Below, piece after piece: positions 2,518 through 64,000 of a DNA stretch of 64,000 bases. Made by a program: the position numbers and the translations under genes. Source of the DNA: Vicinamibacterales bacterium (GTDB lineage: Bacteria > Acidobacteriota > Vicinamibacteria > Vicinamibacterales > JAMQPK01). A model generated the notes under the pieces. It searched no databases, was not told where the DNA came from, and saw nothing but the letters and a program-made list of their open reading frames with translations. Location: positions 1,432,188 to 1,496,187 of the forward strand of contig CAWGSZ010000009.1 of NCBI GenBank assembly GCA_963825295.1, written 5' to 3'. The first letter of the stretch is position 1, and the number at the start of each line of letters is the position of its first letter.

Positions 2518-2684
2518 TATAAAATTCCGCGGCGGCATGTCGAGAACGTGAGTATCTCGTCCGTCAAACCGCACGACTCGCTCTTGAAACACGAATACGT
2601 GCCTCACCGGTACGACTTAATTCAGTCTAAGCTGTCTTTTGCATGCTCGCCCCCCCATTTATACCGCCTTTCATGGAGGTACCC

Positions 2685-11768: not shown

Positions 11769-12016
11769 GGCAATTTCCCTTCCACATCGCGTGGTGGTCC
11801 AGACAACGCAGAAATCCGAGGAAAAGGGCCACTCTGTGACGAAGGAGTGCCGAACAAGTGCCGAACGTGGTTGCCGACTCTTCGGCACTGTGCCGATTTA
11901 CCGGCACCCGTCTGCGGCGTTTTCGACAGGCCTCACCAATTACTGAGTGAAATGAGGGATCCCGGACGATGCGGCCGCGGTACGCCTTCTGCAATTTGCC
12001 ACGCAGGAGGCTTCAT

Positions 12017-13353: not shown

Positions 13354-14247
13354 TCTCATCGATTTGTTCGTACTCGGCGCGATTTGGGGCGCGTCATTTC
13401 TCTTCATGCGCGTGGCCGCCCCCGCGTTCGGGCCGATTCCGCTGATCGCCGCGCGCGTGGGCATCGGGGCGGTGTTCCTCGTCGCGGTTCTGGCCAGGCG
13501 TGGCGGACTGAAGGGGCTCGCGCAGAACGCCGTGCCGCTGGCGGTTCTCGGGACAATCAATTCGGCCGTGCCGTTTACCTTGTTCGCGTATGCCGTGCTC
13601 TTTGTCACGGCAGGTTTCGCGCGCGGTCCTGAATTCGACGGCACCGCTGTTCGGCGCGCTCGTCGCGTTCGTCTGGCTTCACGAGACCCCTTCGAGCCAA
13701 CGCCTGCTCGGGTTGCTCGTCGGCTTCACGGGCGTGCTCATCCTCGTCTGGGACAGGCTGTCGTTCTCGAACGATGGCGGGACCTGGGCGGTGATCGCGG
13801 GATTGACGGCGGCGTTTCTCTACGGCATCTCGGCGAACTACACGCGAAGGCACCTCGGGAGCACCGATCCGCTGGTCGAACGCCACCGGAAGTCTCGTCG
13901 CGGCCACCGTGGTGCTGCTCGGTCCGGCTGTCGTGTACTGGCCTCGAACCGCACCGGACAGCGTCAGCTGGATCAGCGCAATTCTGCTCGGCGTCTTCTG
14001 TACGGGTATCGCCTACGTTCTGTACTTCCGACTGCTGTCTCGCGTCGGACCGTCGCGAACGCTTACGGTGACGTATCTGATTCCGGTGTTTGGCGTGTTG
14101 TGGGGATACGTGTTTATCGGTGAGGTGATCACACGGCGCATGGCGCTGGCGGGCGCAGTGATCTTCGTGGGCGTTGCGCTCGCCACGGGTGCCTTGAAGC
14201 GCAACCTCGCGAACCGGCCCGTCGTGGAAACGCTGACTAGGAGTTGA
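13340..14247 (+). pseudogene. EamA/DMT-family transporter; two frame breaks as assembled
   Basis: Three consecutive frames carry one continuous 10-TM-like protein: ..FAYAVLFVTAGFA | AVLNSTAPLFGALVAFVWLHE..RRHLGSTDPLV | NATGSLVAATVVLLGPAVVYWP... The breaks are at about 13619-13625 and 13878-13880, and each is repaired by skipping 1 nt. Confidence 0.8.
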
Positions 14248-15352
14248 CGTGGTGCTCGCGCACTACGCTTATCGATTCCGGCCGCACGGGCCTGGAAGAG
14301 GCAGCCAGGGCTCGATACTGGGCGAATAGAGGAGCGAGACCAGATTCCCATCGCTGGGCCAGCGCGTGCTGCCGCGCCGCACGCCCCATCGATGCGCGCC
14401 GGTCTTCGGTCCTGACCAGTGCAGCCGTGCCGACGATGAAGTCGGCATCGGAACGGCAGACGATCGCGGCGTCCGAGGTCGTGCGCTCGCGCGCAGCACC
14501 TTTTGCCATCACGACCACGGGCAGACCACAGGCCTGCGCTTCGAGGACGGCGTGATGCGTCGATTGCCGCTCGCTCGGTGAAACGAAGACGTCGGCGGAT
14601 GCCAGCAGCTCGGGCATCTGGGAATCGGGCACGTGGCCGAGAAAGATGGCGTGCGGGCACTTGTACCGAAGGCGCATGAGCGCCGCGCCGTCGCCGGCCA
14701 CGATCAGTCGATGCATCGGACGCGTGCGGCGCAGCTCGAGCTCCAGCGAGAGCAACCGCCATACGCCGTGCTCCTCCGAGATCGTGCCTGCGTAGATCAC
14801 CGCCGCACGGTCTGGCGACACTTGCCATTGTTCGCGCAGGCTCGCGCTTCGCTTCCTGGGAGTGAACGTCTCGATGTCGACTCCAGGACGCCAGGCGGCC
14901 ACGTGGGCGGGGTCCGTGAGGCGACGGAGCGTCTCGTGCGCGCACGCCGACGACGCGAGGACTTTGTGGCAGACCTCGGACAGCGTCCGGAGATACCGCC
15001 GCCTCAACGCGGTTGTCGTCAGAGAGTCGAGGTCGAACGAACCAACGAGCGGCAGGTGGAGCTTCGCGGCAAGAAGCAGCGCGACAAGCGCGACGTGTCC
15101 GCACGAAGCGATATGGACGAGCTCGATGCGCTGGCGCCGCAAACGCGCGATTAGTTCATTCACCCGCAGCAGTGAGGAGAAACCAGGTTGATTGAGGTAA
15201 GGAATGACGTGGATGTCGTCGGGCGAATGATCGACGAGCCCGGCGGTCGTGGTCCGAAGACCGCCAGGTGCGTCAAGATCCCATTCCGCGAAGAGCGCGA
15301 CTCGCACCTGAGAGTCGAGTATTGTCAGCCCGCGTAACGGCGCGGGGCACAA
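14237..15352 (-). CDS. glycosyltransferase family 4 (GT-B, Glycos_transf_1-like)
   Basis: The C-terminal half carries the typical motifs (..FLGHVPDSQMPELLASADVFVSPSERQSTHHAVLEAQACGLPVVV..). The true start may be the GTG at 15307 (VRVALFAEW). Confidence 0.8.
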   Translation of the reverse strand: MCPAPLRGLTILDSQVRVALFAEWDLDAPGGLRTTTAGLVDHSPDDIHVIPYLNQPGFSSLLRVNELIARLRRQRIELVHIASCGHVALVALLLAAKLHLPLVGSFDLDSLTTTALRRRYLRTLSEVCHKVLASSACAHETLRRLTDPAHVAAWRPGVDIETFTPRKRSASLREQWQVSPDRAAVIYAGTISEEHGVWRLLSLELELRRTRPMHRLIVAGDGAALMRLRYKCPHAIFLGHVPDSQMPELLASADVFVSPSERQSTHHAVLEAQACGLPVVVMAKGAARERTTSDAAIVCRSDADFIVGTAALVRTEDRRASMGRAARQHALAQRWESGLAPLFAQYRALAASSRPVRPESISVVREHHVNS

Positions 15353-15394
15353 GCTGCAACGAGTGCGTAAACATTCGGTTATAGTGCGGTAAAC

Positions 15395-17189
15395 ATGAAG
15401 CTTTTGTACGGTTATCTACGGAACTTATTGGCGCCTGGTTGCGTTGGCCCTTGTGCTGGCGACCATCAACCAGGTCTTTTCGCTCCTCGATCCCCTGATT
15501 TTTCGATACGTCATCGACAACTACGCGACGCGCTTCGCCGAATACACCACGAGCGAGTTCTTCCGGGGCGTCAGCCTGCTGCTGGCGGCGGCCGTCGGCG
15601 TGGCGTTCGTCTCGCGCGTAGCGAAGAACTTCCAGGATTACTACATCAATCTGATTACCCAGCGGCTCGGCGCCCAGCTCTATTCAGACGGCATCCGGCA
15701 TTCCCTCGAGCTGCCCTACTCGGTGTTCGAAGACCAGCGCAGCGGCGAAACCCTCGGCAAGCTGCAGAAGGTGCGCGCCGACGTCGAGAAGCTCATTTCG
15801 GCGTCGATCAACGTGCTCTTCACCTCGCTGGTCGGGATCATCTTCGTCATGGTCTACGCCTTCTCGGTGCACTGGCTCATCGCGCCTGTCTACTTCCTGA
15901 CGGTTCCCGTACTCGGGCTCATCAGCTCGGTGCTGAGCAAGCGGATCAAGACGATTCAGAAGCAGATCGTGGGCGAAACGACGGCGCTGGCGGGATCGAC
16001 GACCGAATCGCTGCGGAACATCGAGCTGGTGAAGAGCCTCGGCCTGGGCCAGCAGGAAATCGAACGGCTGAACAGCACGACCGGCAAGATCCTGAAGCTC
16101 GAACTGAAAAAGGTGAAGTACCTGCGAAGCCTCAGCTTCATCCAGGGCACCGCGGTGAACTTCCTGCGCACGAGCATCCTGTTCCTGATGCTCTACCTCA
16201 TCTTCCGGCGCGACATCACGGTGGGCCAGTTCTTTTCGCTCTGGATCTACTCGTTCTTCATCTTCGGGCCGCTCCAGGAGCTGGGCAACATCATCAACAT
16301 CTACCGCGAGACCGAAGCGTCGCTGAACATCTTCGAAGGCATATTGCAGATACCCAAAGAGCCGCGGCCGGTCAGCCCGCTGCCGCTGGACGACGTGCGC
16401 ACGCTGGAGTTCGATCGAGTGACGTTCCAGCACCAGTCGGCGACCTCGCCTGCCGTGAGCGACATCACATTCGCGGTACGTCGCGGCGAAACGATCGCAT
16501 TCGTGGGCCCGTCCGGCGCCGGAAAGACGACGCTCGTGAAGCTGCTCGTCGGGCTGTACCCGCCAGGATCGGGCCGGATTCTGTACAACGGCCTGTCGAG
16601 CAGCGACATCGACCTCGACGTGCTGAGGGAACGGATCGGGTTCGTCACACAGGACACGCAGCTCTTCTCCGGCACGATTCGCGAAAACCTGCTGTTCGTG
16701 AATCCGAAGGCGACAGATGCCGAATGCCTTGACGTGCTTCGCCGGTCGGCCTGCGACAGCCTGCTCGCGCGGGCGGCGAAAGGACTCGACACGGTCATCG
16801 GCGAGGGGGGCGTGAAGGTGTCCGGGGGCGAAAAACAGCGTCTGTCGATCGCCCGCGCGCTGCTCCGGCGGCCCCAGTTGCTCGTCTTCGACGAGGCCAC
16901 CTCGTCGCTCGACTCTTTGACCGAAGAAGGCATCGTTGAAACGATCCGCGACGTGGCGAGTACGGGCGAGTCGATGACGATTCTCATCGCGCATCGCCTG
17001 TCGACGATTCTTCATGCCGATCGCATTTACGTCCTCGAGCGCGGCCGTATCGTCGAGACCGGCCGCCACGACGAGCTCGTCGCGCAGAAGGGTCTGTACT
17101 ATGCGATGTGGCGGCAGCAGATTGGCGAGCGCAGGACTGAAGCGGCCACGACCGGCGACAAGCGCGAGCCGGTAGGCGCAAGCCGGTAG
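15395..17189 (+). pseudogene. ABC exporter, fused permease/ATPase (MsbA-like); frame break 9 codons into the gene as assembled
   Basis: MKLLYGYLRN (frame of 15395) continues as YWRLVALALVLATINQ (frame of 15444) if one T of the TT at 15425-15426 is skipped. Walker A GPSGAGKTT, signature VSGGEKQRLSIAR, Walker B LLVFDEATSSLD. Confidence 0.85.
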
Positions 17190-17201
17190 TAGGCGCGACC
17201 C

Positions 17202-17225
17202 GGTAGCGCAGGGCTTCAGCCCTGC
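17202..17225. repeat. REP-like hairpin GGTAGCGCAGGGCTTCAGCCCTGC
   Basis: 7-bp stem GCAGGGC/GCCCTGC with a TTCA loop, just after the ABC gene stop. It is preceded by three CCGGTAG(G)CGC words. Confidence 0.6.
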
Positions 17226-17249
17226 CAAATCAGCGCGAGGCGAAGGCGG

Positions 17250-18086
17250 TCAACCCTGCCTGGTCGCCCGCACAACAAGATCCGGATCGAACAGGCTCAA
17301 CGTCACGCCGTTTCCTGTACGCTCGAAGCGAATACGCACGGCCGGCGCGCCCGCCGGATGAAACTCGAGCTTGCCGAGATGCGTGAGCACGCGCCGCGTC
17401 GCGCCAGGACGGGTGATGCCGAGCACATTCTGAACGATATCGACGACAAACGCGTCCCGCGACCCGCTGCCAAAGACGTAGCGGCCTTCAAGAGATGTCC
17501 GGTCGGCTTCGGTCAATGGCTCGACATCTCCTGTCTTCGGCAAGTTCCCAACCGACTCGAGGAATCGCAGCACCTCTGCCGCCTGCGCGCCGCCCGCGCG
17601 CGCATGATTGACGAGCGGGATGCCGTGCGGGCCTCGAAGTTGATTCACATTCGGAACAGCGGCGGCAAACGCCTTGACGACATCGAGCTGCCCCAGCATC
17701 GTCGCGGAGAAGATCGTGGGGCCGGCGCCCTGCTCGATCAGCAATTCGGCGATGGCCCTGTTGCCGACGTGCGACGCCGCGCCAAGGGCGGTTTCCCAGT
17801 CGCCGTAACCCCAGTCCCAGGAGGCCTTCGCAAGTGAGGGATGTTGGGCGAGGAGCTCCTTGACGCGCGCGAGATTCCCGTGCGCCACGCCCACCATCTC
17901 CTTGACCAGAAAGGCGTGCTGGCTGGGAAATGACTCGTCACGCGGCGCACCCGGCGCCGGCGGCGGGCCCGGCCACGCAGGAACGGCGTCAGAGCCCTGG
18001 GCCCAGGCGACATCACTTGAAAGAACAAAGGTCCCGAGCGCGGGAACGACTCGAACGAATTGCCGGCGGCTCAACATAGCCGGCAT
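17250..18086 (-). CDS. exported ankyrin-repeat protein (Tat-type signal)
   Basis: MPAMLSRRQFVRVVPALGTFVL twin-arginine motif. Ankyrin-like repeats (GDWETALGAASHVGNRAIAELLIEQGA; PHGIPLVNHARAGG). Confidence 0.75.
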   Translation of the reverse strand: MPAMLSRRQFVRVVPALGTFVLSSDVAWAQGSDAVPAWPGPPPAPGAPRDESFPSQHAFLVKEMVGVAHGNLARVKELLAQHPSLAKASWDWGYGDWETALGAASHVGNRAIAELLIEQGAGPTIFSATMLGQLDVVKAFAAAVPNVNQLRGPHGIPLVNHARAGGAQAAEVLRFLESVGNLPKTGDVEPLTEADRTSLEGRYVFGSGSRDAFVVDIVQNVLGITRPGATRRVLTHLGKLEFHPAGAPAVRIRFERTGNGVTLSLFDPDLVVRATRQG

Positions 18087-18161: not shown

Positions 18162-19067
18162 CTACGGATTAGGACTCGATGGGAGGACATGTTCGCGTAC
18201 GCCAGACTCGATCAGGCGGGCGGCTTCGAGATCCAGACCGTCGAGCGAGCCGTTGGCGGGCCGCGCGATTCGACGTGTCCACAGATGCGTACCGTCGTCC
18301 AGTCGAATCAGATGCATCAGCAGGGTCAGATCGCCGTTGGTCGGCTGCAGTTGTGCCAGGATGAGGTGAGACGCGCCTGTCTGCGCTTCGATGCGATCGA
18401 GGTCGCGCGCATTGCGCGGCATGCGCAGGATCGCCGCGTTGCCGACGATACCGATCCGATTGGGACCCAGGCTGGTCAGCCGATCGACGACCGTGTCTGA
18501 GAGCGCATGAACGGCACGGTCGTAACGGCCGTCGCCCGTCTCGTTATCGAAGATCGAAACCGCCACGATCGGACGCCGCGGCTGGCTATCGAGGCGATCG
18601 CTGAAGGCCACAACCAGGACACCCAGAACCAGCAACCCGGCGGCGCCGAAGGCGACGCGCACCGCACGGGACGAAACGGCCATCCAGCCGGTCGGCTGAA
18701 CACAACCACCGGGCACGATCGGAGCGGCAACAGCGCCGGCATCGACCAGATCCTTGCGTGTGACCGGAGCGATGAACTTGAAGCCCCGCCTCGGCAGCGT
18801 CTGGATGAAGCGCGAGCTTTCGCCGGTGTCGCCAAGGGCCGAGCGGATCTGACTGACGCAGTAGGCCAGCCCGCGATTGAAATCGACGTGCGTATCGTGG
18901 CCCCAGACCCAGGCGGTCAGCTCCTCGCGCGACACGGTCTGCCCGGCTCGCTCGAGGAGCAGGCCCAGCGCGCGCGCAGGCTGGGGCTCGAGCGCGATGA
19001 GACGCCCGGATTTCCGCAGCTCGAGGGAGGCGGCGTCGAACTCGAACACGCCAAACACGTAGGTCAT
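18162..19067 (-). CDS. membrane-anchored winged-helix (OmpR/CadC-type DNA-binding domain) transcriptional regulator
   Basis: N-terminal FEFD..LELRKSGRLIALEPQPARALGLLLERAGQTVSREEL..RGLAYCVSQIRSALGD..IQTLPRRGFKF, one TM segment (VRVAFGAAGLLVLGVLVVAF), then a periplasmic domain. ATG at 19067. Confidence 0.7.
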   Translation of the reverse strand: MTYVFGVFEFDAASLELRKSGRLIALEPQPARALGLLLERAGQTVSREELTAWVWGHDTHVDFNRGLAYCVSQIRSALGDTGESSRFIQTLPRRGFKFIAPVTRKDLVDAGAVAAPIVPGGCVQPTGWMAVSSRAVRVAFGAAGLLVLGVLVVAFSDRLDSQPRRPIVAVSIFDNETGDGRYDRAVHALSDTVVDRLTSLGPNRIGIVGNAAILRMPRNARDLDRIEAQTGASHLILAQLQPTNGDLTLLMHLIRLDDGTHLWTRRIARPANGSLDGLDLEAARLIESGVREHVLPSSPNP

Positions 19068-54265: not shown

Positions 54266-55213
54266 CTATTCGCGTGTCACGTCTCGGGCACCCTTGTCGC
54301 CGCGCAGCCCCACGAACGCGGAATGACGAAGGTGCCCGTCGCGTGTCCATTCGGTGAAGGCGATCTCCACGATGAGCGTGGGCTTCACCCACGTCAGCGC
54401 CTTCATGTCTTCTTCGGTCACCCCCTCGCCCCAGTGTCCCGTCTTGCCCGTCGGCAGATCGGCAAACGGGCACGTCGCTGTTTTCAGCGGGCGCAGCAAC
54501 CCAAAGATTGTCGCGCGTTGCGCGGCCGTCAGGCCGGCCCGCACGCGCCCCGCGAACCGGAGTTTGCGTTTTTCGTAGTATCCGACGACGAGCGATTGAA
54601 AGGTGCGGTGTTCGGGCTTGTAGCCGCCGACGACGAATTCCTGGCGGTGCTGGACTTTGAATTTCTGCCACGCGCCGCTGCGCTTGCCGGGCTCGTAGCG
54701 CGAGTCGCGGCGCTTGGCGACGACGCCTTCCAGCCCCACGCTGGCGATGGCCTGGACGATCTGATCCGGAGTGCCTCGAAGCTCGTCCGAGAATTCCAGT
54801 TCTGATCCGGCGACGAGTTTGCGCAAGGCGGCGCGTCTGACCGCGAGCGGCTCCCCCTGCAGATCCGTCCCATTGAGGTGCAAGAGATCGAAGGTGAAGT
54901 AGCGGATTGCCGTGGCCTTCGCCGTCCGGTGCTGCAACTGCTGAAACGATGGGCGGCCGGATTCGTCGAAGGCGACGACCTCGCCGTCGATGATCGCGGC
55001 ATTTGCGGTCAATTTCTCCGCAGCCTGTCGAACGGCCGGGTACGACCGGGTCAGGTCGTTCCCGTTGCGCGAGATAATGGTCACTCTCGGACCGTTTTTC
55101 AGCACCAGCGCGCGGTAGCCGTCGAACTTGGCCTCGTACAACCACGCGTCCCCTTCCGGCAGTGCCGTCACCGGCAGCGCGGCCATCGGCTGAACGAATC
55201 GCACGTCGCGCAT
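54266..55213 (-). CDS. ATP-dependent DNA ligase (LigD ligase-domain type)
   Basis: LYEAKFDGYRAL (KxDG), IIDGEVV, LEGVVAKR, GAWQKFK, OB-fold C-terminus. Confidence 0.85.
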   Translation of the reverse strand: MRDVRFVQPMAALPVTALPEGDAWLYEAKFDGYRALVLKNGPRVTIISRNGNDLTRSYPAVRQAAEKLTANAAIIDGEVVAFDESGRPSFQQLQHRTAKATAIRYFTFDLLHLNGTDLQGEPLAVRRAALRKLVAGSELEFSDELRGTPDQIVQAIASVGLEGVVAKRRDSRYEPGKRSGAWQKFKVQHRQEFVVGGYKPEHRTFQSLVVGYYEKRKLRFAGRVRAGLTAAQRATIFGLLRPLKTATCPFADLPTGKTGHWGEGVTEEDMKALTWVKPTLIVEIAFTEWTRDGHLRHSAFVGLRGDKGARDVTRE

Positions 55214-55968: not shown

Positions 55969-56853
55969 CTACTCCAGGGGCTCGCACATCAGCAGCGCGA
56001 AATCGCCGATCGTGGCGAAGCCAAGCCTGTCGTACACGCGCCGGGCGGCGCGGTTGTGGTCGCCGGTGAACAGGACGAGTCGCCGCAGCCCGTGCACCCG
56101 CACCGCATCGGCCATCAGCGTCGTCATGGTTGTGGTGGACAGGCCGCGGCCTCGCCGTTCCGGCATGGTGTACACACCGCCGACCTGTCCGATGTGTTTG
56201 TAAAGGGCGTTGAGTCCCGCGGTCGCCGAAAGGCGATCATCTTCAAAGTATCCCCACCATCTTCCTGCTCGCGTGGAGTCTTCGAAGAGCGTCTTCCGTT
56301 CGGCCGGCGTCCCGTGCCGCGGCAGCCCTTCCTGCTGGGAGAACGCGTCGTTCAGCGCGTCCCACTGGTCGAAGTCTTCCGGTCGCAGTCGTCTCACCTG
56401 GGGCATCGCCTCATGTGAAACATCGGCCTCGGTGAGATCGCGCGCTTGAAGGATTTCCTTGCACGCGTAGATTTCCTTGAACGAAGGGCGCTCGCGCAGG
56501 ATGGACCAGATGGCGTCGGCGAGCGTCCATTCGCCGAGCACGCCGCCGATGGGTCGCGGCTCGTTGAGGCACGCCTCGACGATCGCGCGCGCGTATTCCG
56601 TGCGGCCGCCCGCCTCGGCGAGGATCGGCGTCCGGCGCGTCAGGCAGAACACGGCGCGGACGTCGCCGTCGTGTTCGATGAGTTTGAAGTCGCCCGAATT
56701 GAGCGCCTCTCCCATCCGCGGGCCGCTGGTGGCCAGGATGCTGAGGAGGAACATCGATGTGTCGGCGTGCTGTTCCAGGAAGCGGCGGACGATCGGCAGG
56801 TTCTCTTCGTCGACGGCGCGCACGCGCGGGGGTTCGGCCATGACGCCGGCCAT
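55969..56853 (-). CDS. GNAT-family N-acetyltransferase (two-domain)
   Basis: C-terminal acetyl-CoA motif VGGVYTMPERRGRGLSTTTMTTLM...RLVLFTGDHNRAARRVYDRLGF. Confidence 0.8.
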   Translation of the reverse strand: MAGVMAEPPRVRAVDEENLPIVRRFLEQHADTSMFLLSILATSGPRMGEALNSGDFKLIEHDGDVRAVFCLTRRTPILAEAGGRTEYARAIVEACLNEPRPIGGVLGEWTLADAIWSILRERPSFKEIYACKEILQARDLTEADVSHEAMPQVRRLRPEDFDQWDALNDAFSQQEGLPRHGTPAERKTLFEDSTRAGRWWGYFEDDRLSATAGLNALYKHIGQVGGVYTMPERRGRGLSTTTMTTLMADAVRVHGLRRLVLFTGDHNRAARRVYDRLGFATIGDFALLMCEPLE

Positions 56854-56911: not shown

Positions 56912-56988
56912 CGGGGCGTAGCGCAGCCTGGTAGCGCACCTGCCTTGGGCGCAGGGGGTCGCTGGTTCGAATCCAGTCGCCCCGACCA
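56912..56988 (+). tRNA. tRNA-Pro (anticodon UGG)
   Basis: Manual cloverleaf: acceptor CGGGGCG/CGCCCCG (C1:G72), D arm GCGC-AGCCTGGTA-GCGC, anticodon arm CCTGC-CTTGGGC-GCAGG (TGG, G37), variable loop GGGTC, T arm GCTGG-TTCGAAT-CCAGT, discriminator A, encoded CCA. Confidence 0.9.
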
Positions 56989-57109
56989 CTTTGCTCCAAG
57001 AACTTGCAATTTCCTTAGCTAACTGCCGAGTTCAACAACACGGACCTTCCTCAGGGATTCCCGCGAAATCACGAAGCCCACCGTTCGCGTGTGGGATGCA
57101 CCCAATAGG

Positions 57110-57138
57110 TTGACAACCAACAGGTTGAGGTGTAGTTT
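57110..57138 (+). promoter_or_regulatory. sigma70-like promoter TTGACA-17-TAGTTT with CAACC-N4-GGTTG palindrome in the spacer (candidate PadR operator)
   Basis: TTGACA at 57110-57115 and TAGTTT at 57133-57138. The ATG at 57147 lies only 8 nt after the -10 box, implying a leaderless or near-leaderless transcript. Palindrome at 57114-57127. Confidence 0.45.
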
Positions 57139-57146
57139 TCCAACAT

Positions 57147-57494
57147 ATGACGCCCGACAAGAGCGACGTCCTCTACGGCACTCTCGGCCTGATGGTCATC
57201 AAGACTCTGGAGGCGCTGGGTCCGCTGCATGGGTATCGGATTGCCAGGCGCATCGAACAGATCAGCGGCGATCAGCTGGCGCTCAATCAGGGCACTCTGT
57301 ACCCCGCGCTGCTGAAGCTGGAGCAGATGGGATGGATTTCGTCCAAATGGGGCGAGTCCGAGAGCGGCCGGCGTGTGAAGATCTACACACTGACACGCGC
57401 AGGCCGCAAGCAGCTCCACAGGGAAGAAGCGCAGTGGCAGCGTTCGGCGAGTATCGTCGAACGCTTCCTGAAGATTACAGAGGACCCGTCATGA
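57147..57494 (+). CDS. PadR-family transcriptional regulator (acidobacterial type)
   Basis: LYGTLGLMVIKTLEALGPLHGYRIARRIEQISGDQLALNQGTLYPALLKLEQMGWISSKWGESESGRRVKIYTLT. Confidence 0.9.
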   Translation: MTPDKSDVLYGTLGLMVIKTLEALGPLHGYRIARRIEQISGDQLALNQGTLYPALLKLEQMGWISSKWGESESGRRVKIYTLTRAGRKQLHREEAQWQRSASIVERFLKITEDPS

Positions 57495-60196
57495 CACGCC
57501 TGCGGACGTTTGTGTTTCGTCTGTGGGCCCTCCTTGGTTCTCGGCAGATGGATCGCGACATCGACGACGAGATCGCCAGCCATCTTGCCGAAGCGACGGA
57601 GGAATACATCCGGCAAGGCCTTTCCCCCGAAGAGGCGCGTCGCGCCGCTCAACGCCGTTTCGGGGGCGTGACGCAGACGACGGAGGTCTATCGAGAAGTC
57701 CGGTCATTCACGTGGCCGGAGGATCTGCGGCGTGACCTGCGGCATGCGCTCCGCACGCTCCGGCGCGCTCCCGCATTCACGGCCGTGGCGCTTCTGACGC
57801 TGGCGCTCGGGATCGGCGCAAACACGGCGATTTTCTCGATTGTCAACGGCGTCCTGTTGCGTCCGCTCGATTACCCCAAACCCGAGCAGTTGATGTCCGT
57901 GACCACACAGTTCGCCGAGCTCGGCCTGCCGCAATTCCCGTTATCGGCGCCCGAATACCTGGAACTTCGCGAGGTCAACCAGTCATTTGCCGTGATGGGG
58001 GCGTTTTCGACGGGCCAGGGCGAGGTGAATCTGACTGCCCCCGGCGGAGCTCGGCACGTGCGTAACGCGAACGTCGACGAACATCTGCTCGACGCGCTCG
58101 GCCTGCAGGCTGCCCAGGGGCGGCTGTTCGCCCGCGGAGAAACCGACAGGCTCAGTAATGCGCCGCCAGGACAACAATTGCCACCGATCGTTATTCTCTC
58201 GCACGAGTTGTGGCAATCCGCGTTTGCAGGACAGCCGATGATCGGGAAAACGGTGGAAGTGAACAGCCGGCGTCGCGAAGTGATCGGCGTCATGCCGCCT
58301 GGCGCCGACGTCTTGGATATCCGGCCAGAGATCTGGTTGCCGCTGGGGTTGAACCCGTCCAACCGCGGGAATCGCGCCGCTCACTCCCTGCGGGTGATCG
58401 GCCGCTTGAAAAACGACGTCACACCTGAGGCAGCCCAGATGGAATTGACGACGTTCAACGAACAGTGGGGCGAGCGTGTCGGCGTCAGCGATCACATGTT
58501 CGCTCCCAACACCGGTCATACTCTGCAAATGGCACCGCTCCACGATCAGATCGTGAGCGGTGCCAGCCGGGCGATCTGGATGCTTCAGGCGACCGCCGGA
58601 CTGGTGCTGCTGATCGCCTGTGCCAATCTAGCGAATCTCCTGCTGGCGAGGGCGGCAATACGCCGTCGTGAATCCGCGGTGTGCACGGCCCTCGGTGCGA
58701 GCCGGCGCCGTCTCCTGCGGCAGTTCATGACCGAAGGCGCACTGCTGTCGATCGCAGGCAGCGCACTGGGGGTGTGGCTCGCCCATGTAGGTCTGCGCAC
58801 ACTCGCACAGGTGTACCCCGCGGCGATGCCTCGATCGACCGAGGTCAGCGTCGATCTGCCCGTGCTGCTGTTTGCCTGCGGCGTCGCTATCGCCACCACC
58901 ATGTTCTTCGGACTGGCGCAGCTTCGGCACATCGGCGTGAAGGATCTCCGCGTCACGCTCACCGACGCCGGCAGCAAAGGCGCCAGCGGCGGGACACGCC
59001 GTCACATCCGCCGCGGCCTGGTGATGGCCGAAGTCGCAGTGGCCGTCGTCCTCGTGATCGGCGCGGGCCTGCTCATACGCACCGTCTACAATCTCGCGAA
59101 CGTCGACTTGGGATTCAATCGGTCGCGCCTGGTGACGTTCTCTATCTACTTGCCGGAAAGTACCTATGCCACGTCGAGGATTCGAGTGCAGACGTTTCAG
59201 CGTCTGCTGGACGCGCTCCGTCCCCTCCCTGGTATGGAGGCGGCGACGGCCATGTCAGGCCTGCCGCCGAATCGGCCGCCCCTCACGGTCAATACACCGG
59301 TCGCCGATACCACGGCGCCGTTGGTGGGGCCGTTCCCTGTCGTTGATTATTATCAGTACGTGATGCCCGACTATTTCAAGACGATGGGCATCCCGATCGT
59401 ACGCGGGCGCAGTTTTCAGCCAACGGATGCCACATCCTCGGGGCCTGTAGCCATCGTGAACGAGAAGTTCGCCGAGACGTTCTGGAAAGGGCGAGACCCA
59501 ATCGGGCAGCGCGTAAAACCGGGCAACGATCAGCTGCCGTGGTTCACCGTCGTGGGAGTGGCGAAGGATGTCAAGCAGCGGGGCGTTGATCAGGAAACAG
59601 GAACCGAGCTTTACCTGTCAGCTCCGCAGATCGCTGTAGTGCAGGAGCTTGGGATGGTGCCACTCAACCACATTGTGTTGCGCACGCCCCTTCCTGCAGC
59701 GGCATTGTCGCAGTCCGTTGCGCGCGTGGTCCATGAAATGGACCCGGCTGTCCCAGCCATGCGCCTTCGCGATATGGAGACCGTCGTTGCTGAATCCATC
59801 CAGCGACCTCGCTTCCTGGCGCAACTCCTTGGGCTGTTTGCCGGCCTTGCCCTGCTGCTCGCCGCCCTGGGGACGTATGGAGTCTTGTCCTCCCTCGTTG
59901 CGGAGCGCCGCCACGAGATCAGCATTCGCATGGCGCTCGGCGCAGATCGCTCCAGCGTGCTCGTCCTCGTCATGAGGGAGGGCCTTCTCCTCACGGCTAT
60001 CGGTGTTGTGGTTGGACTCGCGGGGGCCTTCGGTCTGAACCGGCTGATCGCGTCGCTGTTGTTCGGTGTGGGCCCAACAGATGTGCCCACGGTTGCTGGC
60101 GTGACTGCCACGATGATCCTCGTGGCCGCGGTCGCATGTATGCTGCCAGCCTGGCGAGCGTCGAGACTCGATCCGAACGCGGTGTTGAGAATATAG
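57491..60196 (+). CDS. ADOP-family duplicated FtsX/MacB-like ABC permease
   Basis: ATGA overlap with padR. Conserved N-terminus ..DDEIASHLAEATEEYIRQGLSPEEARRAAQRRFGGV...E..R.., followed by two MacB_PCD plus FtsX-like 4-TM modules. 901 aa. Confidence 0.9.
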   Translation: MTRLRTFVFRLWALLGSRQMDRDIDDEIASHLAEATEEYIRQGLSPEEARRAAQRRFGGVTQTTEVYREVRSFTWPEDLRRDLRHALRTLRRAPAFTAVALLTLALGIGANTAIFSIVNGVLLRPLDYPKPEQLMSVTTQFAELGLPQFPLSAPEYLELREVNQSFAVMGAFSTGQGEVNLTAPGGARHVRNANVDEHLLDALGLQAAQGRLFARGETDRLSNAPPGQQLPPIVILSHELWQSAFAGQPMIGKTVEVNSRRREVIGVMPPGADVLDIRPEIWLPLGLNPSNRGNRAAHSLRVIGRLKNDVTPEAAQMELTTFNEQWGERVGVSDHMFAPNTGHTLQMAPLHDQIVSGASRAIWMLQATAGLVLLIACANLANLLLARAAIRRRESAVCTALGASRRRLLRQFMTEGALLSIAGSALGVWLAHVGLRTLAQVYPAAMPRSTEVSVDLPVLLFACGVAIATTMFFGLAQLRHIGVKDLRVTLTDAGSKGASGGTRRHIRRGLVMAEVAVAVVLVIGAGLLIRTVYNLANVDLGFNRSRLVTFSIYLPESTYATSRIRVQTFQRLLDALRPLPGMEAATAMSGLPPNRPPLTVNTPVADTTAPLVGPFPVVDYYQYVMPDYFKTMGIPIVRGRSFQPTDATSSGPVAIVNEKFAETFWKGRDPIGQRVKPGNDQLPWFTVVGVAKDVKQRGVDQETGTELYLSAPQIAVVQELGMVPLNHIVLRTPLPAAALSQSVARVVHEMDPAVPAMRLRDMETVVAESIQRPRFLAQLLGLFAGLALLLAALGTYGVLSSLVAERRHEISIRMALGADRSSVLVLVMREGLLLTAIGVVVGLAGAFGLNRLIASLLFGVGPTDVPTVAGVTATMILVAAVACMLPAWRASRLDPNAVLRI

Positions 60197-60199
60197 GGG

Positions 60200-60220
60200 C
60201 GAATCCAGTCGCCCCGACCA
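60200..60220 (+). repeat. direct repeat identical to the tRNA-Pro 3' end (att-like)
   Basis: CGAATCCAGTCGCCCCGACCA is identical to 56968-56988 at 21 of 21 positions. It begins 4 nt after the ADOP stop codon. Confidence 0.85.
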
Positions 60221-60254
60221 GTATCAACCGGGGCACCCTGAGCGAAGTCGAAGG

Positions 60255-60267
60255 GTCGCCCCGACCA
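60255..60267 (+). repeat. second, shorter copy of the tRNA-Pro 3' end
   Basis: GTCGCCCCGACCA is identical to 56976-56988 at 13 of 13 positions. The upstream 14 nt weakly resemble the T arm. Confidence 0.5.
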
Positions 60268-60430
60268 TTTTCGATATTTTCCTGGGCAATTCCTCTGATT
60301 CCGTCATTCGCCAACGACGGATTTCGCCCACCGATACTCACGAAAACCCGTAAAGGGGATCACAAAAGGGATCACAACGGCGGCACCGGCGAGTTGACTT
60401 TTTCGTCCGTCGAGTGCAAAAGGTAGAGTC

Positions 60431-60706
60431 ATGTTCGAAGTTCGCCTTCGGTTCCCCTTTCCTCATGCTGACAAGCAGCACCAAGTGACAGAGTTATCTC
60501 TTACCGAGATTGCTGACCTTCAACCCTTCTGGGAAGCGAATGATGGTGAACCTCTGGAGGAATACAGATGGGAGACCGGGTCGCGTGATGACGCGGAACG
60601 TATGGCCGGTCGCCTCAGGAATCTCCGCTACAAGTTGCCGGATCGACCGGAGTCGCTTCCTCCTCACGTAGAGGTGGTGGAGGTAGACTCAGGCCCGCAG
60701 ATCTGA
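60431..60706 (+). CDS. hypothetical protein (91 aa) in lower-GC patch
   Basis: An ORF with an ATG and plausible composition, but only a weak RBS and no recognisable family. Confidence 0.35.
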   Translation: MFEVRLRFPFPHADKQHQVTELSLTEIADLQPFWEANDGEPLEEYRWETGSRDDAERMAGRLRNLRYKLPDRPESLPPHVEVVEVDSGPQI

Positions 60707-60762
60707 GAACGACGTTCGCCAAAACCTACCTTGCGCGCGTGCGCCTCACCCCGCTACTCTTC

Positions 60763-60924
60763 CCGCCGCGCCAGCGAGAGCGCCTCGTCGCGAGACTGCG
60801 CGTCCATGATCGCATAGCCGCCGACAATCTCCTTGGACTCGGCCAACGGCCCGTCCATCACGGTGATCTTGCCGCCCGCGGGCCTCACACGCGTCCAGGC
60901 GGACGAGGGCTGGAGCCCGGCGCC
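60763..60924 (-). pseudogene. internal fragment of a YciI-like gene (paralog of 61519-61893)
   Basis: About 160 nt align with 61609-61770 at roughly 85-90 percent identity by eye (..GAGLQPSS..TRVR...GKITVMDGP.AESKEIVGGYAIMDA.SR.EALSLARR). Both ends of the gene are missing. Confidence 0.7.
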
Positions 60925-61048
60925 ACGATGACAGCAGCGGGGCGGCAGTGGCGACGAGCAGCGCTTTTCTGAATTGGTTTTCCGCAACGAGGCGCATGCC
61001 AGAGCCCTTACAAAACTTCCAAACCGAAGCGTCGCGACGGGCAGGCCA

Positions 61049-61273
61049 TTAGGCTTGGTCCTCTTCCTCGATGCTTTCTAGGGCGTCCGTGACCTTCTCG
61101 ATGTCTTGCTCCGCCTCATTGAGCTTCCGGTGCGACTCCAAAAGTGGTTCTTCTTTGGCTTCTGCAAGGGTAGTAGCGACATCGTCAAGGTCGGCAATCA
61201 CAGCGTCCAGCCTTTTCGAAAGGGTGGGCTCACGCTCATCAGCATCGGCTTTCGTGCCGGAATCGGATTTCAT
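61049..61273 (-). CDS. small acidic helical hypothetical protein (74 aa)
   Basis: GGAGGGG lies upstream of the ATG at 61273. Coiled-coil-like acidic sequence, no family recognised. Confidence 0.45.
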   Translation of the reverse strand: MKSDSGTKADADEREPTLSKRLDAVIADLDDVATTLAEAKEEPLLESHRKLNEAEQDIEKVTDALESIEEEDQA

Positions 61274-61518
61274 ATGGCCCCTCCGCACCCAGTCTAACAA
61301 TATTCAGAAGGCGGACCGTGTAAACAACTCGCAACTTTTAGCTCCAGCAATTTGGATTCGGAGGACTCTTGCGAGAAGAGTTCTGTCGGGTTACGCGCGT
61401 CGACGAGCCACGACACCTGAAGGCGAGTCACATCAAGCCGTGGCGAGAAGCGACGGACGCCGAGAATGCGCTTCCCCCACCATAGCGTGAGGTTCGCTTC
61501 ACTTGTTGTTCTTTAAAG

Positions 61519-61893
61519 CTACGCTTCCGGCTGCGCCTCCTCCTCGAGCGGGCGCATCTCGCACTCCCCCTCGAACGTCGGCCAGTGCTTCAGGTGGATC
61601 TCCATGAAACGCCGCGCCAGCGAGAGCGCCTCTTCGCGCGACTTCGCGTCCATGATCGCGTAGCCGCCGACAATCTCCTTGGACTCGGCAAACGGCCCGT
61701 CCATCACGGTGATCTTGCCGCTGGACAGCCTCACACGCGTTCCGGTAGACGAGGGCTGAAGACCGGCGCCGGTGATGAAATTGCCGCTCTTCGTCGTTTC
61801 CTCGATGAACTTGCCCATCTCCTCGTACAGACTCGCAGGAACCTGGACATTCCGGTAGTCCTCGGTGTGTTTGATGAACATCATGTAGCGCAT
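61519..61893 (-). CDS. YciI-family protein
   Basis: AGGAGGAG lies upstream of the ATG at 61893. MRYMMFIKH...VMDGPFAESKEIVGGYAIMDAKSREEALSLARRF is typical of YCII-related domains. Confidence 0.85.
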   Translation of the reverse strand: MRYMMFIKHTEDYRNVQVPASLYEEMGKFIEETTKSGNFITGAGLQPSSTGTRVRLSSGKITVMDGPFAESKEIVGGYAIMDAKSREEALSLARRFMEIHLKHWPTFEGECEMRPLEEEAQPEA

Positions 61894-61967
61894 GAGTCGT
61901 GATCTCCTCCTATCCTGACGTCGATCGGGGCGGGCCGAAATCGACACTCCGCCTAATTTGAAAGCCC

Positions 61968-61994: not shown

Positions 61995-62113
61995 GATGAG
62001 GGGTAGGGCTTTGACTATTCCTCTCTCAGCGCTGTGTTCGGGTGCTGGCGACCCAGAGTAGTTGAATCTTTCAGAGGAACCAAAATCGCCCATATCATCA
62101 GCCATCCATACTC

Positions 62114-62716
62114 ATGGCACCGATCGTCCCCGATTCACGAACCATCAAGGCCTTCCCTACTCGAGCGGCGCTCGAACGCTGGATGCGGAAGAACCACGCA
62201 CGCGAGACGGAACTCTGGCTGAAGATCTACAAGAAGGGCTCCGGAGCCGCGACCGTGAGTATCACCGACGCGCTCGACGTGGCGCTCTGCTGGGGATGGA
62301 TCGACGGCATCCGCAAGGCCTTCGACGAGCAGTCGTTTCTGCAGCGCTACACGCCGCGGCGGCAGAAGAGCATCTGGAGTCAGATCAACCGGACGCATGT
62401 CGCACGGTTGACGGCGGCCGGCCGGATGACCGAACACGGTCAGCGGCAGGTTGACGCGGCGAAGGCTGACGGCCGCTGGGACAGCGCGTATGCGCCGATC
62501 CGCAGCACGACAAAAGAGACCATTCCCGCCGATCTGCGCGCGGCCATCGAGGCGAGCCCACGGGCACGCAGGACATTCCGGAAGCTCGGGCGCATGAACC
62601 TTTTCGCGCTGGCATTTCGCACCAACAACATGAAGACCGCTGCCGGCCGCGCAAGAAAGATCGCGTCGCTCGTCGCCATGCTGGAACGCGGCGAGACGAT
62701 CGTGCCCGAGCGCTGA
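62114..62716 (+). CDS. YdeI/OmpD-associated family protein
   Basis: ..F.TRAALERWMRKNHARETELWLKIYKKGSG...ITDALDVALCWGWIDGIRK..D...FLQRYTPRR..S.WSQIN.. is typical of the family. Confidence 0.8.
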   Translation: MAPIVPDSRTIKAFPTRAALERWMRKNHARETELWLKIYKKGSGAATVSITDALDVALCWGWIDGIRKAFDEQSFLQRYTPRRQKSIWSQINRTHVARLTAAGRMTEHGQRQVDAAKADGRWDSAYAPIRSTTKETIPADLRAAIEASPRARRTFRKLGRMNLFALAFRTNNMKTAAGRARKIASLVAMLERGETIVPER

Positions 62717-62752
62717 CACGTAACGAACGTCATTCACAATCGGTCCCGTATG

Positions 62753-62816
62753 GTCCGGCTAAAGCCGGACAGGCCTAAAGGCCTGTGCCACCGGAGAGGC
62801 AGGGCTAAAGCCCTGC
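62753..62816. repeat. cluster of three REP-like hairpins
   Basis: GTCCGGCTAAAGCCGGAC (62753-62770), ACAGGCCTAAAGGCCTGT (62769-62786), GCAGGGCTAAAGCCCTGC (62799-62816). Confidence 0.75.
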
Positions 62817-62837
62817 GCTACCGGTAAGGCTCGTGCG

Positions 62838-64000
62838 CTACCCCTGAGCTGCACGCGCAGGCACGTGGCGGCGGACGAGCGCGAGCGAGATGACGGTGAC
62901 GGACATCGCCGCGGCGACGACGGTGAAGAAGCCGCGGCTGCCGTCTGTATCGAGCGCCCACGCCCCGGCGTAGCTGCTGAGAATCGCGCCGAGCCGGCCG
63001 ATGCCGGCCGCGCTGCCCACACCGGTCGATCGCAGCGCCGTCGGATACACGTGCGCCGCCAGCGCATACAGCGTCGTCTGGACGGCATTGATCAGTCCGC
63101 CCGTCAACGCCAGCATCACCACGATCGGCAACGTCGCGCTGTCCGCGCCGATCGTCATCCCTCGCATGACGATCGCCGACACCAGCGCGCCCACCGCCAT
63201 CGCGATCATCGTGATGCGCGAGCCGATGCGCGCGATCGCCAGCGAGCCCGCGATGGCCCCCACGACTCCACCCAGATTGAACGTGGTGATGCCGAGGTTC
63301 GCCAGCGATCCGAGCCCCGCGCCCGAGAGCATCGACGGCACCCACGTGAAGCCGAGGTACACGGCCAGCAGACACGAGACATACGCTCCCCATAACGCGA
63401 GCGTGTCGCCCAGATAGGGTGGCTTCAAAACAGTGACGGCCGATGGACGATCGACCTGCGCGTCAGCGGTGTCGATGACACCCGTCGCCGAATCGAGGGG
63501 ATGCCCCATGCGCCGGAGCGTGGCGATTAGCTCCGGGCGCCGGCTGGGATGCCGCGCGAGAAATCGAGGCGATTCGGGAAGAAGCCAGAAGAGGAGCGCC
63601 GCCGCCGCAAACGGCACAGCGCCACCCAATGCGAACAGTCCCCTCCACCCGACGAGGGGAAGCGCGCGCTCGGCGAAGAGCCCGGCCAGCATGGCGCCAA
63701 GGGGCACACAAACAATGGTCAAGGTGACCGCAAACGGCCGATGGCGGCGTGGAACGAACTCCGATGAAAGCGTCGCGGCACACGGAATCGCGCCACCAAG
63801 TCCGATGCCGACGAGCAACCGCAGTGTGCCGAGCGCCGCAATGCTGTTCACGAACGACGCGGCGATCGTCATCGTGCCGAAGAGCAGCATACTCGCGATG
63901 AGCGCGCCACGCCGGCCCGATCGATCGGCCACGACGCCGGCCAGGCCCGCGCCGATGAGCATGCCGACGAAGCCGAGCGCGCCGACGCTGGCAAACGCAG
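62838..64000 (-). CDS. MFS transporter, aromatic acid:H+ symporter (AAHS)-like; N-terminus beyond window end
   Basis: ..ADRSGRR.., ..LPESPRFL.., and a 12-TM MFS pattern. The open frame continues past 63962 to the window edge. Confidence 0.85.
   Translation of the reverse strand, partial: AFASVGALGFVGMLIGAGLAGVVADRSGRRGALIASMLLFGTMTIAASFVNSIAALGTLRLLVGIGLGGAIPCAATLSSEFVPRRHRPFAVTLTIVCVPLGAMLAGLFAERALPLVGWRGLFALGGAVPFAAAALLFWLLPESPRFLARHPSRRPELIATLRRMGHPLDSATGVIDTADAQVDRPSAVTVLKPPYLGDTLALWGAYVSCLLAVYLGFTWVPSMLSGAGLGSLANLGITTFNLGGVVGAIAGSLAIARIGSRITMIAMAVGALVSAIVMRGMTIGADSATLPIVVMLALTGGLINAVQTTLYALAAHVYPTALRSTGVGSAAGIGRLGAILSSYAGAWALDTDGSRGFFTVVAAAMSVTVISLALVRRHVPARAAQG

Follow-up and report, generated by a model that had tools for sequence, protein, structure and literature searches.

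Among the described systems that come closest to the locus reported here are two kinds of element. One is the tDNA island, among which a T-loop/junction class of att sites exists (PMC4383910). The other is formed by ICE/IME-type elements, in which successive elements accrete at one site and then decay, and by the CIME, an element that is devoid of integration genes and retains both attL and attR (PMC5704250). Our locus lies in a window of 64,000 nucleotides, which is the whole stretch of DNA that was analysed, and combines a tRNA-Pro(TGG) gene, direct copies of the 3' end of this tRNA and a padR-ADOP operon. A first-pass annotation had taken the operon for a tRNA-targeted cassette. Part of this view holds, since the scars are genuine and the interval is variable among relatives; the rest is not supported, as the operon is joined by microhomology and is dispersed elsewhere without tRNA. 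Our verdict places the locus with a known kind, the decayed island. With a probability of roughly 0.7, we read it as the eroded remnant of at least one tyrosine-integrase island at tRNA-Pro(TGG) that now holds a padR-ADOP copy.

The tRNA gene, the only one found in the window by ARAGORN, is identical in sequence in three related genomes (L002, L003, and L004). The gene and the copies of its end are as follows.

56912..56988, plus strand: tRNA-Pro(TGG), predicted by ARAGORN; intact target gene, representing the attL side of the island array
60200..60220, plus strand: 21-nt direct copy of the tRNA 3' end, an exact match; left-truncated attR remnant
60221..60254, no strand: spacer of 34 nt between the 21-nt and 13-nt copies
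60255..60267, plus strand: 13-nt tRNA-end copy, better read as the second copy of a duplication of about 21 nt in the old attR

The exact recurrence of the last 21 nt of the tRNA had been noted before and is confirmed by string search: the 21-mer CGAATCCAGTCGCCCCGACCA occurs exactly twice in the window (56968-56988 and 60200-60220), with no further match when up to three mismatches are allowed. The tRNA-end 13-mer GTCGCCCCGACCA is found at 56976, 60208, and 60255, which likewise verifies the third copy (about 0.21 matches expected by chance; three reached in no shuffle). An intact tRNA thus stands at one end, and a cognate 3' fragment in direct orientation at the other, as in the Islander definition. 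The distance from the ADOP stop codon to the repeat had been given as 4 nt; it is 3 nt (GGG), with TAG at 60194-60196. Together with GGGG at 60196-60199, the 21-nt copy forms a 7-bp hairpin. The 21-nt block begins at T-loop position 3 and the 5' strand of the T-stem is absent beside it. Its first two bases (CG) are also bases of the padR-ADOP unit at this place in other genomes, and the unambiguously tRNA-derived stretch is therefore 19–21 nt. An origin of the repeats by chance, or from a dispersed repeat that has nothing to do with the tRNA, has only the GC-rich composition to recommend it and is vanishingly improbable. This origin is ruled out by the shuffled sequences, where a second 21-mer match appeared in 0 of 100, and by the relatives, where the match grows to 41–47 nt; within the window and the compared loci, the 21-mer is confined to tRNA-Pro and its att scars.

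Comparison with close relatives, which had been proposed as a way to find other cargo, was carried out with an extension obtained by anchoring on the FGE gene of L003 (the MFS right-hand anchor yielded the more distant loci L016 and L017, both without tRNA); all comparators are MAG or metagenome assemblies and may be chimeric. Three related Vicinamibacterales MAGs (L002, L003, and L004) have flanks in common with the window at about 90% nucleotide identity, or about 88–93% for L003 and L004, and each holds different DNA at tRNA-Pro, so that the content varies between related genomes. These cargos are a TOTE helicase with a toxin-antitoxin pair, a lanthipeptide synthetase, and an 11-kb mixed block, and the padR-ADOP pair of the window is present at this tRNA in none of the three. 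In the relatives, the displaced tRNA fragments measure 41–47 nt, beginning in the anticodon loop. A 41-nt copy in L003 and a 47-nt copy in L004 lie 4.1 and 5.3 kb 3' of the tRNA, respectively, and a 43-nt copy in L003 is found 10.9 kb past its 41-nt copy, giving two islands in tandem. In L004 a truncated tyrosine integrase (a C-terminal fragment of PF00589, 40.7 bits) reads into attR. In addition, IMG/VR viral contigs (L020–L022) carry 45–50-nt partial copies of this tRNA end, each beside an integrase-like gene, two of the three passing the Pfam threshold. Given the varied cargo, the 41–47-nt copies, the integrase remnant, and the viral copies, tRNA-Pro is a recurrent integration hotspot in this soil Vicinamibacterales lineage, and the direct repeats are att scars, as the first-pass annotation had assumed; the 41-, 43-, and 47-nt copies bear this out.

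Within the species, a near-identical strain (L001) has the same arrangement as the window. Neither an empty site nor an alternative allele was seen at this level. This strain differs from the window by about 5–20% substitutions in padR-ADOP up to 60196 and by none in the following 818 nt, a discontinuity that was considered as evidence for a site-specific junction and then dropped, because it falls at the end of the paralogue homology, because L001 in 58064-58460 is nearer to L010 (from the same sample as L001) than to the window, and because its ORF is broken. Gene conversion or chimeric assembly would explain the pattern equally well.

The interval between the tRNA and the first repeat contains the following features.

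57067..60201, plus strand: padR-ADOP homology block, hereafter the unit; runs from the promoter region through both genes and ends 5 nt beyond the stop codon
57110..57138, plus strand: promoter-like site, TTGACA-17 nt-TAGTTT, 8 nt 5' of the padR ATG, read from the sequence
57147..57494, plus strand: padR, a PadR-family regulator of the acidobacterial paralogue group (PF03551, TIGR03433)
57491..60196, plus strand: ADOP, a duplicated MacB/FtsX-type permease (TIGR03434), its start overlapping the padR stop

ORF and domain searches agree with the earlier statement that padR, ADOP, and a promoter-like site are all that this interval holds. The two adjacent genes, which overlap by 4 nt (ATGA), both score above their curated NCBIfam cutoffs: padR reaches 129 bits for TIGR03433 (cutoff 101.8) and 75.8 bits for PF03551, and ADOP 841 bits for TIGR03434 (cutoff 622.3), with MacB_PCD, FtsX, and permease prefix domains in addition. 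GC3 of ADOP is 0.745, vs. 0.81–0.83 in the flanking core genes. The TTGACA element (57110-57115) is perfect and the site is kept in the homologous units of L009 and L011; it fell below the threshold of a consensus scan, and so went unreported, because its −10 element TAGTTT is weak. Exact-protein look-ups of the GNAT, padR, and ADOP proteins returned no match. The absence of an integrase from the cassette, also claimed earlier, stands: neither Phage_integrase, serine recombinase, nor transposase domains were detected by Pfam in the main ORFs of the window, and tblastn of the 64-kb window with four integrase sequences gave no match. Accordingly, 56989-60199 encodes padR and ADOP only and no PF00589 tyrosine integrase of the kind sought by Islander, and the interval is free of recombinase and transfer genes, as in a CIME.

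As an observation in its own right, one padR-ADOP operon is seen as mosaic copies of 89–97% identity in at least seven contexts. The unit was found in at least six contexts besides the window, among which L009, L010, L011, and L023 have copies with 89–93% nucleotide identity, whose identity pattern is mosaic, and L012, L013, L014, and L015 have the conserved ADOP 3' end. Many further PadR/ADOP paralogues are found in related loci. Boundaries by blastn are 57067-60201 (L009), 57107-60201 (L011), 57708-60198 (L010), and 57108-60201 (L023), the left boundary at 57067 deriving from the single comparison with L009. Downstream contexts of the copies differ, with the exceptions that L014 resembles L009 and that L023 shares the first ~80 nt; in the L009-type arrangement an M23 peptidase comes after the operon. 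No tRNA was found near the other copies on the sequence examined (10 kb on either side for L009–L011), no tRNA-end repeat follows their stop codons, and a search for flanking direct or inverted repeats around them gave nothing convincing. It had been suggested that tRNA-targeted integration could be the mechanism of the ADOP expansion. Since the nearest copies sit in at least six contexts without tRNA, such integration fails to explain the family expansion, and the proposal that it drives this expansion is not supported.

Another possibility is that padR-ADOP operons are a mobile or copying module with defined ends, for which the tRNA scar is a mere landing place, and that repeated landings together with gene conversion among copies drive the ADOP expansion. 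The occurrence of one mosaic unit, 89–97% identical, in at least seven contexts is in its favour, and so are the ends: in most contexts the 3' homology stops no more than about 15 nt from the stop codon, and the 5' ends lie 40–80 nt upstream of padR. We judge it very unlikely, however, for the other copies have neither terminal inverted or direct repeats nor target-site duplications, no transposase or recombinase is associated with them, the boundaries are unequal (57067 once, 57107 in others, and ~80 extra nt of L009-type downstream DNA in L023), and gene conversion within old paralogous homology would give equally sharp edges without mobility. An integron-cassette reading was also discarded, there being no attC-like element, no intI, and variable unit boundaries. 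In L009, the remains of a decayed integrase are situated 1.2 kb from the unit, which implies that operons of this group may sometimes travel in islands. A related and still quite improbable scenario would have the padR-ADOP subgroup as a copying module picked up by, or landing in, integrase-borne islets, with the att scar of the window and the integrase pseudogene of L009 as two such cases; it would spread between and within Vicinamibacterales genomes while gene conversion keeps the copies 90–97% alike. If this were true, the ADOP and PadR expansions of Acidobacteria, so far unexplained, would gain a concrete explanation that is open to test.

We return to the preferred reading, the eroded island, on which the flanks of the operon and its junction with the scar bear directly. 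The flanking DNA is composed as follows.

56989..57060, no strand: flank directly 3' of the tRNA, homologous to the left end of the second island of L003
60268..60767, no strand: older flank right of the scar, common to L003; 94.6% identical to L018rc
60431-60706, within the older flank: orf91, GC3 0.58
60754..61300, minus strand: further variable DNA, situated past the scar and before the conserved YCII-OmdA-MFS block; absent from L003
60754-60987, in the variable DNA: internal fragment of a YCII gene
61049-61300, in the variable DNA: orf83, GC3 0.62

On the left, blastn aligns 56944-57029 with L003rc 16028-16112 (86%); anchored at the tRNA end, about 32 of 45 nt are identical over 56989-57033, and similarity is patchy to ~57060. 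The counterpart of this flank in L003 is the sequence just right of its 41-nt attR, and the flank probably represents an old island's P'-arm side. On the right, 60255-60767 matches L018rc 17149-17662 at 94.6%, in an alignment that begins inside the 43-nt attR of L003. The product of orf91 has no Pfam or NCBIfam match and was matched in exact-protein look-up by L001 alone. Further right, window 60764-60924 matches window 61610-61770 and L004rc 18776-18936 at 90%; when 60197-61520 was compared with the islands of the relatives by sensitive blastn and tblastx, only the YCII fragment was matched.

Both scars of the window map to the one 43-nt attR of L003. The repeats are demonstrably tRNA-derived and orthologous to the full-length attR of a relative. 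The window has the right 21 of its 43 nt, and this copy looks truncated beside its orthologue in L003, a 43-nt site that begins in the anticodon loop. The 13-nt end of the 21-nt repeat with the 8 nt after it (60208-60228) agrees with the second attR of L003 at 19/21 positions; the two window copies, taken as 13-mer plus 8 nt of flank, score 19/21 and 18/21 against the single junction of L003 and 17/21 against each other. The first 8 nt of the spacer resemble the ancestral post-attR flank (GTATCAAC vs. CTTTCAAC), and its remaining 26 nt are an insert pairing with the 13-nt repeat to form a hairpin. The 13-nt copy is hence better read as a local duplication of ~21 nt inside the same scar, rather than as a separate, older island end. 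The idea of successive events at this tRNA survives in part: the tandem islands of L003 reveal more than one, whereas the 13-nt copy probably does not count among them.

On its left, the scar starts where the homology of the padR-ADOP block runs out at its 3' end, the two sharing a 2-nt (CG) microhomology. The sequence is TAG-GGGCGCTCGAGCC in homologous units, TAG-GGGCG/AATCCAGT in the window, and GGTTCG/AATCC in the tRNA. An edge at the end of the operon homology with microhomology points to illegitimate recombination or deletion and not to an integrase crossover. The description of a cassette bounded exactly by att sites, in the manner of an integrase product, is thus not borne out, given this join, a right scar of 21 out of 43 nt, and on the 5' side the first ~45–70 nt past the tRNA, which are common to L003, whose island holds 10.9 kb of other genes. 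We also discarded the model in which the 21-mer is a target-site duplication, as the inserted block would need 78 nt outside the unit, the first 45 of which are shared with L003.

The same junction weighs on the alternative of a CIME, in which an att-flanked, integrase-less padR-ADOP cassette entered by crossover at the tRNA and has stayed mobilisable in trans, the integrase being supplied by another locus of the genome or by an incoming element. An intact tRNA with an exact direct repeat, an interval variable among relatives, viral contigs with integrases specific for this tRNA end, and a homologous unit near an integrase pseudogene (L009) would all be consistent with it, as would the definition of elements that lost integration genes but kept attL and attR (PMC5704250). 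The T-loop start of the 21-nt block would agree with the T-loop/junction class of att sites in tDNA islands (PMC4383910), and an integrase of the T-loop class could in principle use such a block as its whole att site. We nevertheless hold this alternative to be unlikely: the orthologous attR is of the 43-nt anticodon-loop class, with only its right 21 nt retained here; left of the repeat there is no 5' T-stem strand, which a T-loop core site requires; the break falls where the operon homology gives out, at 2-nt microhomology; the 45 nt adjoining the tRNA are shared with a relative without this operon; and in its other contexts the unit has neither a tRNA nor a tRNA-end repeat after the stop.

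For the eroded island, we infer the following order of events. Tyrosine integrases would have inserted one or more islands into tRNA-Pro(TGG), and each insertion would have restored a complete tRNA gene and pushed the original 3' part out to the distal end of the island, where it forms attR. In the window, losses presumably then took away the integrase, the left half of attR, and most of what the island held, and a 3.1-kb padR-ADOP copy may have taken their place, joined mid-attR at the 2-nt CG microhomology by illegitimate recombination or deletion and not by the integrase. The third, 13-nt copy would stem from the ~21-nt local duplication around the 26-nt insert in the scar. The operon seems to have arrived secondarily and not to be the last surviving cargo, although, had padR-ADOP been genuine island cargo, one deletion reaching from just past the ADOP stop into attR would leave an identical junction; the remnant is probably immobile now. 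What the decayed island contains is one copy of an operon that is scattered widely; the padR-ADOP pair here is no self-contained tRNA-targeting cassette.

The locus documents a tRNA-Pro integration hotspot in uncultured soil Vicinamibacterales, with tandem accretion, varied cargo, and progressive scar erosion. It also removes an attractive but unsupported shortcut, by which tRNA-targeted cassettes would be the cause of the ADOP expansion. The part that might repay genome-wide study is the set of mosaic padR-ADOP copies in at least seven contexts.

Compared with known systems, the window resembles Islander-type tDNA islands in its intact tRNA with direct 3'-end copies downstream and in cargo that differs among close relatives. 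These relatives add the tandem array of L003, the integrase abutting attR in L004, and, with the viral attP-like sites, identity blocks of 41–50 nt of the anticodon-loop class (PMC4383910). Unlike such islands, the window has no integrase and would fail the integrase filter of Islander, its displaced fragment is only 21 nt, and its left junction is microhomology to the operon and not a P-arm. With CIMEs and ICESt1-related elements of Streptococcus thermophilus it shares the state of an att-flanked remnant without integration or transfer genes, and the tandem accretion and decay of the latter are paralleled by the successive elements at one site in L003. A CIME, however, has by definition functional attL and attR, whereas in the window the attL side is intact and attR has shrunk to 21 of 43 nt, joined to the operon at a microhomology; the window also shows no conjugation or relaxase genes and no sign of ICE/IME origin or mobilisation. 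Finally, the operon conforms to the multi-copy TIGR03433/TIGR03434 pairs of Acidobacteria in passing the curated cutoffs, in its ATGA overlap, and in its many paralogues, and it differs from the other sampled copies of its subgroup, which have no tRNA or tRNA-end repeat beside them, in lying within an att-scarred interval at a tRNA gene.

The sole tRNA gene in the window is a tRNA-Pro, and two genes follow it before the first repeat of its 3' end, at 60200:

56912-56988, + strand, tRNA-Pro(TGG)
57147-57494, padR (TIGR03433, 129 bits against a cutoff of 101.8)
57491-60196, ADOP permease (TIGR03434, 841 bits against a cutoff of 622)

The last 21 nt of the tRNA, CGAATCCAGTCGCCCCGACCA, have one further exact copy in the window (60200-60220); no near match was found there with up to three mismatches allowed, and none of 100 shuffled sequences gave a second match. 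A third copy of the last 13 nt lies at 60255-60267, against a chance expectation of about 0.21 matches, and none of the shuffles contained three. Sequence search thus confirmed both repeats described in the first-pass annotation, as well as an interval holding just padR and ADOP, although the gap to the repeat is 3 nt and not 4, since the ADOP stop codon ends at 60196. Its description of a cassette without an integrase also stands: the main ORFs scanned across the 64-kb window gave no domain of an integrase, serine recombinase or transposase, and tblastn of the window with four integrase sequences returned no match. Before both tRNA-end copies, a G-rich stretch can pair with the acceptor 3' strand, which gives two hairpins (60196-60215 and 60229-60263); the 106-nt fold has an energy of -39.6 kcal/mol (z-score -2.6). 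The second hairpin is created by a 26-nt insert that is partly self-complementary to neighbouring sequence; GACCAUUUUCGAUAUUUU follows this hairpin, which could be the terminator of the ADOP transcript.

Anchoring on the GNAT gene upstream of the tRNA (55969-56853) retrieved seven MAG loci from Vicinamibacterales, and three of them (L002, L003 and L004) keep the upstream synteny at approximately 88–93% nucleotide identity together with an identical tRNA-Pro. The window's padR-ADOP is at the tRNA-Pro site of none of these three; the alignment to close relatives proposed earlier as a check for other cargo indeed shows DNA other than the window's in all three. In L003 the tRNA 3' end recurs as a 41-nt copy 4.1 kb downstream of the tRNA, with a 948-aa AEP-TOTE/DEAD/DUF559 helicase and a MazE/PIN pair encoded in the interval. 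L004 has a 47-nt copy 5.3 kb downstream, an interval with a LanM-like lanthipeptide synthetase (DUF4135, LANC_like), and the C-terminal catalytic part of a tyrosine integrase running straight into the repeat (PF00589, 40.7 bits, profile positions 123-167 of 172). L002 begins with the helicase island of L003 before its contig ends. In three IMG/VR viral contigs, exactly this tRNA 3' end is present as a partial copy of 45-50 nt, in no case with the full tRNA and each time adjoining an integrase-like gene; two of these three genes score above the Pfam threshold. All these tRNA-end blocks of relatives and viral contigs begin in the anticodon stem or loop, which corresponds to subsite 'A' of tDNA islands (PMC4383910). 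Judged from these sequences, tRNA-Pro truly serves this lineage as an attB, and does so repeatedly; the fragments downstream of it are its displaced 3' ends (attR).

Several features of the relatives are recorded here in their own right. The island shared by L003 (15050-18569 of its extended contig, L018) and L002 (L002rc 11279-14856), with its MazE/PIN pair and AEP-TOTE/DEAD/ResIII/DUF559 protein of about 950 aa and no integrase, is a candidate conflict or defence module. The class II lanthipeptide synthetase-like gene of L004 (DUF4135 + LANC_like; L004rc 12797-16100) is split by a frameshift and accompanied by a DUF6445 protein. TTGCAA motifs at 5-6-nt spacing lie beside att sites (L018rc ~17050-17075; L004rc ~12550-12575; window 57003-57015), namely GGTTGCAAATCCTGTTGCAAAGGGG left of the 43-nt attR of L003, GGCTTGCAACGAGATTGCAACGGGG right of the L004 tRNA and a single CTTGCAAT after the window tRNA, and may be integrase arm-type binding sites. 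Between GNAT and tRNA-Pro, an additional ~1 kb with a MEDS-domain gene is present in L003 (L003rc 10890-11855) and an additional ~1.5 kb with a gene for a 381-aa protein in L004 (L004rc 10903-12406); both are absent from the window and L002, so that the 5' side of the tRNA is variable too. Genes of non-homologous end-joining type also lie in the window (333-2607; 54266-55213), for a protein with a LigD primase-polymerase domain and for two separate ATP-dependent DNA ligases, one of them 1.7 kb upstream of the hotspot.

The extended L003 contig is a tandem array of tRNA, island 1 (4.1 kb), 41-nt attR, island 2 (10.9 kb), 43-nt attR and window-like DNA. In island 2 are a zinc-ribbon ORF, FGE, Crp and KaiC-like fragments and, on the opposite strand, an unrelated ADOP; it has no integrase. 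Window 60255-60767 matches the DNA after the 43-nt attR at 94.6%, the alignment starting inside that attR, and the OmdA-MFS block (62086-64000) matches further on at 91.7%. The window 13-mer with its 8-nt flank is present twice (60208-60228 and 60255-60275, alike at 17 of 21 positions), and these copies match the single attR junction of L003 at 19/21 and 18/21. On the simplest reading, the window scars would be one old attR, of which the right 21 nt are left, interrupted by a ~21-nt duplication that surrounds the 26-nt insert. The 45 nt after the window tRNA and those after the 41-nt attR are identical at about 32 positions, anchored at the tRNA end; because the geometry of integration makes the sequence right of an attR the former 3' neighbour of the tRNA, this shared junction is older than island 1. 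With left and right scar flanks shared, window 57034-60199 takes the place of the 10.9-kb island 2 interior. GC3 is 0.75-0.78 in padR-ADOP (0.74-0.78 in its homologues elsewhere), 0.81-0.83 in flanking core genes and 0.58-0.62 in orf91 and orf83 right of the scar, contrasts which fit a patchwork of foreign remnants from the tRNA to the conserved YCII-OmdA-MFS block. An internal YCII-family gene fragment (60754-60987, - strand), 0.6 kb upstream of the intact YCII (61519-61947) and 90% identical to window 61610-61770 and to the L004 YCII gene, looks like a relic of recombination or imprecise island excision.

The padR-ADOP unit itself is found in other places. Its closest ADOP homologues (91, 88, 87 and 86% protein identity; L009, L023, L011 and L010) each have a padR, and DNA identity to the window (89-93%) is confined to 57067-60201, 57108-60201, 57107-60201 and 57708-60198, respectively. 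No tRNA lies within 10 kb of the unit in L009, L010 or L011, nor do these units have a tRNA-end repeat or convincing flanking repeats. Searching metagenomes with the conserved 3' end of ADOP gave four more copies, three in further downstream contexts and one L009-like, all without a tRNA fragment. The copies are mosaic, and the extra L009-type DNA of L023 makes the unit boundaries similar, not identical. About 80 nt past the ADOP stop are common to L023 (5362-5438), L009 (12744-12821) and the metagenome copy L014; in L009 they start an M23 peptidase gene, while L023 then diverges into a 56-aa stub, a pattern that suggests imprecise segmental copying from an L009-type locus. In L016, a more distant relative, an ADOP gene and a padR with an ADOP fragment (11456-15244) lie between MFS and OmdA, which are adjacent in the window (62716-62838), giving another ADOP insertion/deletion polymorphism, and L011 has five ADOP genes within 22 kb.

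Beyond the ADOP stop, GGGCGCTCGAGCC or a similar sequence follows in other copies, and GGGGCG then AATCCAGT in the window; the tRNA has GGTTCG|AATCC at the corresponding point, and this comparison places the join at a 2-nt CG microhomology. Such a join bears the signature of illegitimate recombination or deletion and not of an integrase crossover, which would have kept the whole identity block and a P-arm. The earlier proposal of a tRNA-targeted cassette is not supported by this junction. The comparisons show the repeats to be att scars at a hotspot, the interval from tRNA-Pro to repeat to be a variable island remnant, and the window operon to belong to a dispersed, recombining group. Within this overall model, we give a probability of about 0.6 to the reading that the operon is not surviving original cargo but a copy that would have taken the place of the island interior, its integrase and the left half of attR. 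The same right junction could come from one deletion that began just beyond the ADOP stop and ended in attR; with the left junction (~57060-57067) fitting the unit equally tightly, this alternative is less economical.

The 3.9-kb metagenome contig of a near-identical strain, L001, repeats the window arrangement; its padR-ADOP differs by frameshifts and by 5-20% substitutions as far as 60196, beyond which no change occurs in 818 nt. This discontinuity looked like a site-specific junction, but we do not count L001 as evidence: the break coincides with the end of paralogue homology, parts of L001 are nearer to L010, from the same sample, and gene conversion or assembly chimerism would explain the pattern equally well. 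Among approximately nine sampled copies of the subgroup, a tRNA fragment abuts the unit only in the window and L001, and tRNA-targeted integration as the cause of ADOP expansion is thus not upheld. A weaker reading, that the operons hitch-hike in islets, is kept alive by a frameshifted tyrosine integrase C-terminal fragment in L009 (8199-8457; 50% identity to that of L004), 1.2 kb upstream of the unit; no tRNA fragment was found near it, and we regard this reading as improbable.

Among named concepts, Islander-type islands and CIMEs come closest (PMC4383910, PMC5704250). The former are defined with an integrase, which the window locus lacks, and a CIME has functional attL and attR, whereas the window attR is incomplete, leaving membership unproven. 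The locus resembles a decayed tDNA island within a tandem-accretion array, a real feature that is ordinary in kind.
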